DNA of 64,000 nucleotides from Escherichia coli (GTDB lineage: Bacteria > Pseudomonadota > Gammaproteobacteria > Enterobacterales > Enterobacteriaceae): NCBI RefSeq assembly GCF_044324785.1, contig NZ_CP172127.1. One strand, written 5' to 3'. How positions within the stretch are numbered: position 1 is the first letter of the stretch; every line of letters begins with the position of its first letter. This document shows positions 27,801-38,711 of the stretch, in pieces. A program made the position numbers and the translations under genes. The notes under the pieces were generated by a model that did not search any database, was not told where the DNA came from, and was given only the letters and a program-made list of their open reading frames with translations.

Positions 27801-27905
27801 TTTGCGCCTGTCGGCAAAGGGATTTTTCTTCGCTTATTCCTAAATCTATTTCGCGAAGCTTACTGCGCCGACAGTCACCACGGACCATTTGCAATGGTGA
27901 ACAAT

Positions 27906-36409: not shown

Positions 36410-36708
36410 TCCCCTTACAACATGGACTGATCCTCGCGGCAATCTTATTCGTTCTTGGCTTAACCGGTCTGGTTATCCGTCGCAATCTGCTGTTTATGCT
36501 GATTGGTCTGGAAATCATGATTAACGCCTCCGCGCTGGCCTTTGTGGTCGCCGGAAGCTACTGGGGCCAGACCGACGGTCAGGTGATGTACATTCTCGCC
36601 ATCAGCCTCGCGGCGGCAGAAGCAAGTATCGGCCTTGCGCTGCTACTGCAACTTCACCGTCGTCGCCAGAACCTGAACATCGATTCAGTAAGTGAGATGC
36701 GCGGATGA
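36406..36708 (+). CDS. nuoK: NADH-quinone oxidoreductase subunit K
   Basis: 100 aa membrane subunit; 4-nt overlap with nuoJ. Confidence 0.95.
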
Positions 36709-38546
36709 ACATGCTTGCCTTAACCATTATTTTGCCATTGATTGGCTTCGTCCTGCTGGCGTTCTCCCGTGGGCGCTGGTCTGAAAACGTCTCGGCGATC
36801 GTCGGCGTTGGCTCTGTGGGCCTGGCGGCGCTGGTAACCGCCTTTATCGGCGTTGATTTCTTCGCTAACGGCGAGCAGGCATACAGCCAGCCGCTGTGGA
36901 CGTGGATGTCGGTAGGCGACTTTAACATCGGTTTTAACCTGGTGCTGGACGGCCTGTCGCTGACCATGCTCTCGGTGGTCACTGGTGTGGGTTTCCTTAT
37001 TCATATGTACGCCTCCTGGTATATGCGCGGTGAAGAGGGCTACTCTCGCTTCTTCGCTTACACCAACCTGTTCATCGCCAGCATGGTAGTTCTGGTGCTT
37101 GCCGACAACCTGCTGCTGATGTACCTCGGCTGGGAAGGCGTGGGCCTGTGCTCCTATCTGCTGATCGGTTTCTATTACACCGATCCGAAGAATGGCGCAG
37201 CGGCAATGAAAGCGTTCGTCGTGACCCGTGTGGGTGACGTCTTCCTCGCTTTCGCGCTGTTCATTCTTTACAACGAACTGGGCACCCTGAACTTCCGCGA
37301 AATGGTGGAACTGGCACCAGCGCACTTTGCTGACGGCAATAACATGCTGATGTGGGCGACGCTGATGCTGCTGGGCGGTGCGGTCGGTAAATCTGCGCAG
37401 TTGCCGTTGCAGACATGGCTTGCCGACGCGATGGCGGGCCCGACGCCTGTCTCCGCGCTGATCCACGCCGCAACCATGGTAACCGCGGGTGTCTACCTGA
37501 TCGCCCGTAGCCACGGCCTGTTCCTGATGACCCCGGAAGTTCTGCATCTGGTGGGCATTGTCGGGGCGGTTACGCTGCTGCTGGCCGGTTTTGCCGCGCT
37601 GGTACAGACCGATATCAAACGTGTTCTCGCTTACTCTACCATGAGCCAGATTGGCTACATGTTCCTCGCGCTTGGCGTGCAGGCATGGGATGCGGCGATT
37701 TTCCACTTGATGACTCACGCGTTCTTTAAAGCGCTGCTGTTCCTGGCATCCGGTTCCGTCATTCTGGCCTGCCATCACGAACAGAACATCTTCAAGATGG
37801 GCGGTCTGCGTAAATCTATTCCGCTGGTTTATCTCTGTTTCCTGGTGGGCGGCGCAGCACTGTCGGCACTGCCGCTGGTCACTGCGGGCTTCTTCAGTAA
37901 GGATGAGATCCTCGCGGGTGCGATGGCGAATGGTCATATCAATCTGATGGTGGCTGGTCTGGTCGGTGCGTTTATGACCTCGCTCTACACCTTCCGTATG
38001 ATTTTCATCGTCTTCCACGGAAAAGAACAAATTCACGCTCACGCCGTGAAAGGGATAACTCACAGCCTGCCGCTGATTGTGCTGCTGATCCTTTCCACCT
38101 TCGTTGGCGCACTGATTGTACCGCCGCTGCAGGGCGTGCTCCCGCAAACGACGGAGCTGGCGCACGGCAGCATGTTGACCCTGGAAATTACCTCTGGTGT
38201 GGTCGCGGTGGTCGGCATTCTGCTGGCAGCCTGGCTGTGGCTGGGTAAACGTACTCTGGTGACCTCCATCGCCAACAGTGCGCCGGGCCGTCTGCTGGGC
38301 ACCTGGTGGTACAACGCCTGGGGCTTTGACTGGCTGTACGACAAAGTGTTCGTCAAGCCGTTCCTGGGTATTGCCTGGTTGCTGAAACGCGATCCGCTGA
38401 ACTCAATGATGAACATCCCGGCTGTCCTTTCCCGCTTTGCAGGTAAAGGTCTGCTGTTAAGCGAGAACGGTTATCTGCGCTGGTATGTGGCATCCATGAG
38501 CATCGGTGCGGTCGTGGTGCTGGCACTGTTGATGGTACTGCGTTGA
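36705..38546 (+). CDS. nuoL: NADH-quinone oxidoreductase subunit L
   Basis: 613 aa antiporter-like membrane subunit. Confidence 0.96.
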
Positions 38547-38551
38547 GTTAA

Positions 38552-38638
38552 GGATTGTGGGCTTGCCCCTGGGCATATAAGAACGTAGGTCGGATAAGCC
38601 GCCTTCGCGGCGCATCCGACACTACAACCACAATCCGA
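38552..38638. repeat. REP element within a larger palindrome in the nuoL-nuoM intergenic region
   Basis: GTAGGTCGGATAAGCCGCCTTCGCGGCGCATCCGACAC (REP-like) flanked by the inverted pair GGATTGTGG / CCACAATCC. Confidence 0.7.
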
Positions 38639-38711
38639 AGAGAATTTTCTGTCGTGAGAATTCGTTGAAAATCCGGTCCTGACGGGACTTTTACAAGGAA
38701 TAAAGATCGCC

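Follow-up and report, generated by a model that had tools for sequence, protein, structure and literature searches.

The palindrome that follows nuoL in the nuo operon of Escherichia coli is, to judge from its sequence, an ordinary E. coli REP repeat, an element of an already known kind, and we consider it probable (at roughly 0.7) that it represents what is left of a decayed inverted doublet of REPs, a REPIN/BIME-like quasi-palindrome that is tolerated where it stands, is read through by RNA polymerase and has a passive and conditional effect. No repeat is commoner in E. coli than the REP, and for decades REPs have been known as possible stabilisers or attenuators. The element described here matters little by itself; it sits in a respiratory operon of essential function in the best-studied bacterial genome, and literature searches found no study of this specific nuoL-nuoM REP. 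Coordinates refer to the window, which is the whole stretch of 64,000 nucleotides that was analysed, unless a K-12 position is named.

Anatomy and identity of the nuoL-nuoM element

The ORFs of nuoL (36705..38546) and nuoM (38712..40241), both on the plus strand, are separated by 165 bp, which is the largest gap in the nuo operon. The first-pass annotation gave this length and called the gap the only sizeable one in the operon; the length holds, whereas "only" does not, since nuoB and nuoC are about 93-105 bp apart and nuoF and nuoG about 46-52 bp, the remaining junctions being of 15 bp or less or overlapping. It also had the palindrome occupy the gap, and here the location is correct and the extent is not: the palindrome covers the first 90 nt of the spacer, and the last 75 nt are a separate, conserved leader of nuoM (Table 1). 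The region from 38450 to 38800 is 100% identical to that of E. coli strain FDAARGOS_497 and is matched in 5423 of 5426 complete E. coli genomes, every time at nuoL-nuoM. The second-largest gap, the nuoB-nuoC spacer (27801-27905), carries an 8-bp inverted repeat of its own (CTGTCGGC/GCCGACAG, about 52 nt apart) and folds with z = -2.0.

Table 1. Features of the nuoL-nuoM junction in the window
Feature	Position	Strand	Basis or remark
nuoL stop codon TGA	38544..38546	+	ORF 36705..38546 and annotated nuoL in identical E. coli records
Outer inverted repeat, left arm GGATTGTGG	38552..38560	+	100% complementary to 38628-38636; homologous arm in Citrobacter R56, Klebsiella and Superficieibacter
Putative left (inverted) REP relic TTGCCC/CTGGGCATA	38563..38577	+	alignments, fold and half-palindrome comparison
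GTAG tetranucleotide, 5' side of REP	38585..38588	+	pairs with CTAC 38622-38625 in the predicted fold
Intact REP hairpin GTCGGATAAGCCGCCTTCGCGGCGCATCCGAC, 7 + 5 bp	38589..38620	+	inverted repeat and fold
Outer inverted repeat, right arm CCACAATCC	38628..38636	+	complementarity; polymorphic in E. coli (CCCCAATCC, CCCCAGTCC, CCCCGGTCC)
nuoM leader, outside the palindrome	38637..38711	+	in Enterobacter, several Citrobacter and Atlantibacter its counterpart is the entire spacer (76 nt)
Invariant core GAATTCGTTGAAAATC	38658-38673	+	identical in all 12 aligned sequences
Hairpin H2	38675-38689	+	95.6% of cells paired; compensatory changes at 3 of 6 pairs
ACA	38693-38695	+	19 nt before the nuoM AUG, just past H2
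Shine-Dalgarno AAGGAA of nuoM	38695-38700	+	just downstream of H2
nuoM start codon	38712..38714	+	ORF 38712..40241 and annotation

A repeat finder reports the two 9-nt outer arms as a perfect inverted repeat and, between them, a 14-nt inverted repeat (38589-38602 with 38607-38620) that is 86% complementary. As coding-strand RNA, the 85-nt element (38552-38636) is predicted to fold into the outer helix, a 4-bp mini-hairpin (38564-38575) and the REP hairpin with its extension by GUAG/CUAC pairing. The energy of the fold is -44.3 kcal/mol, as compared with a shuffle mean of -23.1 (z = -6.48, none of 200 shuffles being as good); the REP hairpin with its flanks accounts for -22.2 kcal/mol (z = -6.2), and the nuoL-nuoM spacer as a whole folds with z = -4.3. 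The structure begins 5 nt past the nuoL stop codon, and the REP hairpin proper begins 42 nt past it. The earlier description, in which a REP lies within a longer inverted repeat in the nuoL-nuoM gap, is thus borne out by the repeat finder, by the fold and by the helix at orthologous sites described below; a chance palindrome is ruled out by the z of -6.5 together with the conservation of the outer helix at the orthologous site.

The inner hairpin has the properties by which REPs are recognized: it is an imperfect, GC-rich palindrome of ~30-40 nt with a GTAG foot, has many dispersed copies and is extragenic, lying within an operon between the stop codon of one gene and the start codon of the next. 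The GTAG precedes the hairpin, and the pattern GTAGGYCGGATAAGNCG is matched with 0 mismatches; a strict REP consensus pattern gave no match because the REP found here has a different upper stem, which the looser pattern allows. Its flanks, GTAGGTCGGATAAG...GCATCCGACA, are letter for letter those of the right-hand REP (790-825) of a REP pair elsewhere in the window. That pair (740-825) is an intact BIME, in which an inverted GCCTGATGCG... REP and a GTAGGTCGGATAAGGCG... REP stand 14 nt apart. With 38547-38660 as a blastn query, the median number of places matched in an E. coli genome is 28, of which just one covers at least 80% of the query; 4698 of the 5426 E. coli genomes have the composite, each in a single copy. 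Since the core is multi-copy and the composite with its outer arms occupies one place per genome, the core is a member of the REP family and the composite is unique to nuoL-nuoM; a composite that is mobile as a unit in E. coli was rejected on account of the same single-copy state. A search for known RNA families yielded only a partial match to naRNA4 (Rfam RF02564, a REP325 transcript; 38588-38625, 23.1 bits, E = 0.61), which stays below the gathering threshold of 59.5 bits and reflects the likeness to REPs. In K-12 the nuoL-nuoM REP lies between REP165 (2.349 Mb) and REP168 (2.4095 Mb); the record NC_000913.3 carries no annotated repeat features, even at REP325, and is uninformative as to a K-12 name for this REP.

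A probable doublet ancestor and the alleles of E. coli

Comparisons with other genera bear on how a REP might come to lie within a longer inverted repeat. The nuoM locus was taken from 80 species of Enterobacterales and the nuoL-nuoM spacer extracted from each. In Citrobacter sp. R56 the spacer starts with GGATTGCGGTTGTTTT, two inverted REPs meet at CCTAC-AAGACC-GTAGG and the module ends with AAAACCACAATCC; its left 47 nt match the reverse complement of its right 47 nt at 38 of 47 positions without gaps, and its RNA is predicted to form a single long hairpin (-56 kcal/mol). This doublet can be aligned with the E. coli element over its full length, apart from ~17 nt that E. coli lacks in the middle of the left REP (TTGCCC...CTGGGCATA in E. 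coli, as against TTGCCCGGTGGCGCTAACGCTCACCGGGCCTA); what is left of that REP now forms only the 4-bp mini-hairpin. The same outer arms recur in Klebsiella oxytoca/michiganensis and Superficieibacter electus, with left halves that are shortened differently, so that the 47 nt of Citrobacter sp. R56 correspond to 39 nt in Superficieibacter, 33 nt in Klebsiella and 27 nt in E. coli. Among eight sequences from four genera, 87% of the cells of the outer helix are paired at orthologous sites, as compared with 32-46% when the partners are slid, and there is one compensatory pair, from U-A to C-G by way of U·G intermediates.

From these alignments we take the outer repeat to be the distal end of an old quasi-palindrome. 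A REP doublet would have been situated just past the nuoL stop codon in an ancestor that was shared, or from which DNA was exchanged, with some lineages of Citrobacter, Klebsiella and Superficieibacter; in the line leading to E. coli the middle of the left REP would have been lost but not the right REP or the complementary flanks at the outer ends, which would leave a REP nested in a longer inverted repeat. Such a course would fit the account of Bertels and Rainey (PMC3337134), in which REP singlets are what remains of doublets as they decay, and singlets with a long palindrome arise as by-products of REPIN activity.

Within E. coli the allele of the window, with its perfect outer stem, is found in 323 genomes, a minority among the carriers of the REP module; an intermediate allele, CCCCAATCC, is found in about 167 genomes, and the K-12-type allele, CCCCAGTCC, which is 2 nt shorter, in about 4200. 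The outer helix of the K-12 type contains a mismatch and a G·U pair and still forms in the predicted fold (-41 kcal/mol). The outgroups end with ...CCACAATCC or close variants of it, and for this reason the window allele seems closer to the ancestral form, with the majority allele resembling a product of decay. All four stem transitions among the E. coli alleles retain a G·U pair on the mRNA strand, for which the chance is ~1 in 16; this hints faintly at a constraint at the level of the RNA, and we count it against the reading of the element as a tolerated repeat.

In 725 of the 5426 E. coli genomes (13%), including an O157:H7 genome, there is no REP between nuoL and nuoM, and an unrelated spacer of 230 bp is found instead. 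This spacer, taken from E. coli E21 and 23CRST029 (L002 and L003, 398-627), is identical at 230 of 230 positions to that of Salmonella enterica subsp. arizonae (L006, 971-1200). The first 27-74 nt of nuoM are identical as well, and the flanking coding DNA is only 80-93% identical. From the sequence, the Salmonella-type spacer looks like a recent patch of interspecies recombination of ~260-300 bp that exactly replaces the REP module. A chimeric spacer occurs in E. coli O157:H7 strain TR01 (L088, 1608-1837), where K-12-type sequence as far as GTAGGT is followed by a Salmonella-type middle, before K-12-type sequence resumes with H2 and the leader; this may be either a genuine recombinant or an artefact of assembly. 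The nuoL-nuoM spacer thus offers a natural allelic series within one species (REP with a perfect stem, REP with a degraded stem, and a different repeat with no REP), in which the ratios of nuoL to nuoM RNA and protein could be compared so as to decide cleanly whether a REP within an operon has a measurable effect.

The spacer across the Enterobacterales

Across the 80 species the nuoL-nuoM spacer varies from 24 to 289 bp. Structure was scored by shuffle z-scores, which replaced a threshold of hairpin energy that was over-lenient. Eight species have spacers of 24-41 nt without structure, and among the 72 spacers that reach 60 nt or more there are 60 that fold with z below -2 (median for the 72, -3.3), their sequences being unrelated. 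The structured spacers derive from REPs, doublets, probable ERIC (in Serratia), a 120-nt repeat and lineage-specific GC hairpins. In the Serratia species (L053, L054 and L071) the spacers contain AGTAAGTGAC, which reads as the ERIC core motif by comparison with ERIC primer sequences and would make ERIC a further repeat family at this junction. The first-pass annotation had suggested a comparison with the nuoL-nuoM spacing of relatives that lack the REP; in these the spacing runs from 24 to 271 bp, which shows that the gap is not simply made by the REP.

The nuoM leader is the more constant part of the junction (Table 1). In many genera a ~120-nt imperfect palindromic repeat with the centre GTACTTAAGTAC is found inside its hairpin H2 (L002 465-600, L009, L010, L012, L027, L031, L033, L039, L042, L044, L052 and others, with an internally deleted version in L043); in E. 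coli the median is 4 copies of this repeat per genome, diverged to 77-80% identity, and the repeat may be ERIC-like or RSA-like. According to the table of the MazF regulon (PMC5001579), nuoM is cut at an ACA that lies 19 nt from its start, a position that matches the ACA of the leader.

The nuoL-nuoM junction is, then, a landing pad for palindromic repeats, and structure at this place could be favoured, beyond being merely tolerated. A stronger version of this idea is that the junction is under selection for stable RNA structure, so that palindromes have been repeatedly recruited and swapped, shielding the nuoA-L mRNA from decay initiated in the nuoM leader, with the Salmonella-identical patch as an adaptive replacement. 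If this were true, REP doublets, the ~120-nt dispersed palindrome, ERIC and the lineage-specific GC hairpins would be the candidate elements that supply the structure; we think it rather improbable. Judging from the variation among alleles, the replacement of the whole spacer in some genomes and the range of spacer lengths, selection on the palindrome itself is weak.

Read-through, rival readings and known systems

Like an intrinsic terminator, the element places a GC-rich stem-loop past a stop codon. Unlike one, it has no U-run after any of its helices (the sequence past the outer stem is GAAGAGAA), and for want of a U-tract it is not an intrinsic terminator. Scans found no terminator-like site on either strand between 38547 and 38711 and no promoter-like site in the spacer, and both an intrinsic terminator and an internal promoter at this place were rejected on these grounds. 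The supplements of PMC7815308 provide curated Term-seq 3' ends of K-12, from LB at two densities and from minimal glucose, together with regions of Rho termination; for these three conditions, and for a strain other than that of the window, they list neither a 3' end nor a Rho region in 2393042-2393204 or elsewhere in 2,392,8xx-2,393,3xx, and ends that are weak or specific to a condition could escape such peak lists. On the same strand the tables do list 3' ends at 2391429 (nuoN), 2394829 (nuoL), 2399938 (nuoG) and 2403873, an "orphan" end which maps into the nuoB-nuoC spacer at about 27889 of the window. The terminator table in a 2026 preprint lists nuoG...nuoN together, with transcripts that end past nuoN. 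Read-through into nuoM-N is therefore the rule, and a stable RNA species ending at the REP is not prominent in the K-12 conditions that were mapped.

We take it as most likely that the element is a tolerated genomic repeat in a permissive intercistronic spacer. It is transcribed in the sense direction within the polycistronic nuo mRNA and is predicted to form the stable three-helix fold of about -44 kcal/mol just past the nuoL stop codon; RNA polymerase reads on to nuoM-N, and any effect of the element would most probably be passive and conditional. REPs block 3' exonucleases (PMC6061677; bioRxiv 10.64898/2026.03.23.713779), and if the mRNA were cut downstream, for example by MazF at the ACA of the leader, 3'-to-5' exonucleases might be halted at H2 or at the REP, whereby nuoA-L would be spared. 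Both this role as a barrier and its small size are what we infer; the MazF cleavage itself comes from the literature. Tuning of nuoM-N by the element, for which the argument would be one of analogy, is unproven.

The alternative nearest to the earlier annotation, which had proposed a partial terminator or mRNA stabiliser that changes the dosage of nuoM-nuoN, would make of the REP a selected regulator: a partial and probably Rho-assisted terminator, a stabiliser of upstream RNA, or both, such that nuoA-L RNA exceeds nuoM-N RNA. By analogy this is plausible, given that REP325 acts in this manner in yjdMN, where it attenuates and stabilises, and that tandem gene pairs containing REPs have a median log ratio of upstream to downstream RNA of 0.96, as compared with -0.09 in controls (bioRxiv 10.64898/2026.03.23.713779, a preprint that lays weight on how strongly context matters); the recurrence of structured RNA in the spacer across the Enterobacterales and the preservation of G·U pairs in the stem also speak for it. 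Nevertheless we judge it unlikely, since the K-12 maps of three conditions list neither a 3' end nor a Rho region there, a U-tract is lacking, nuoG...nuoN are listed together, 13% of E. coli genomes, an O157:H7 genome among them, have no REP at this junction, most carriers have an imperfect outer stem, and eight species have short spacers (24-41 nt) that are unstructured. One copy each of NuoL, NuoM and NuoN goes into the same complex, and a drop in RNA past nuoL would for that reason be without obvious benefit.

An effect on translation seems to us quite improbable. A terminating ribosome would have to melt the outer stem, which might slow termination and lower the output of NuoL, or else the initiation of nuoM might be uncoupled from nuoL. 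Liang, Rudd and Deutscher are said to have reported in 2015 that REPs within 15 nt of a stop codon slow termination and lower output. The geometry agrees with this, in that the last base of the stop codon is 38546 and the first of the stem is 38552, and a 165-nt spacer with its own Shine-Dalgarno sequence implies that nuoM is initiated independently; however, the REP hairpin proper lies at a greater distance, and the helix that is near the stop codon has just 9 bp, which most E. coli genomes have in a weakened form. A role at the level of DNA, whether as a site for a REP-associated transposase (RAYT), for gyrase, IHF or HU, or as an element that organises the chromosome, we regard as the least credible of these proposals. 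In the literature REPs are substrates of RAYTs and BIMEs bind gyrase and IHF, and the minus strand of the element folds equally well (-46 kcal/mol), but there is a single intact REP and no IHF-type linker, REP325 has no effect on nucleoid compaction or REP-REP contacts (bioRxiv 10.64898/2026.03.23.713779), and nothing in such a role is specific to the nuo locus. The tolerated, decayed doublet remains the reading that we prefer.

As a REP, the element resembles the other palindromic units of E. coli in its GTAG followed by a ~32-nt imperfect GC-rich palindrome, in its extragenic position and in its multi-copy core. It differs from them in an upper stem of GCCGC/GCGGC with a CUUC loop, where the commoner REP form has GGCG...CGCC, and in a stem to which GTAG/CTAC pairing adds further base pairs and around which there is an outer helix of 9 bp that is specific to the locus. 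With REP325 (the naRNA4 locus, yjdMN), malE-malF and hisJ-hisQ it shares the arrangement of a REP that is transcribed between two genes of an operon and is able to form an exonuclease-resistant 3' structure; REP325, in contrast, is a multi-REP array with a measured upstream to downstream RNA ratio of 35:1 and laddered 3' ends, whereas nuoL-nuoM has a single REP and no listed K-12 3' end.

There is also a likeness with REPINs and BIMEs (Bertels and Rainey 2011, Gilson et al. 1991), inasmuch as Citrobacter sp. R56 and C. amalonaticus have, at the orthologous site, two inverted REPs in one quasi-palindrome with complementary flanks. Two intact inverted REPs with a short spacer are present at the orthologous loci L013 and L012, as opposed to the window, in which the right REP alone is intact; the left one, having lost ~17 nt, is no longer a REP, so that the E. 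coli element is not now a doublet, and together with its flanks it is single-copy, unlike a doublet that is repeated as a unit. To read it as the relic of a doublet is a refinement of what is known of REPs, and not the description of a new kind of element.
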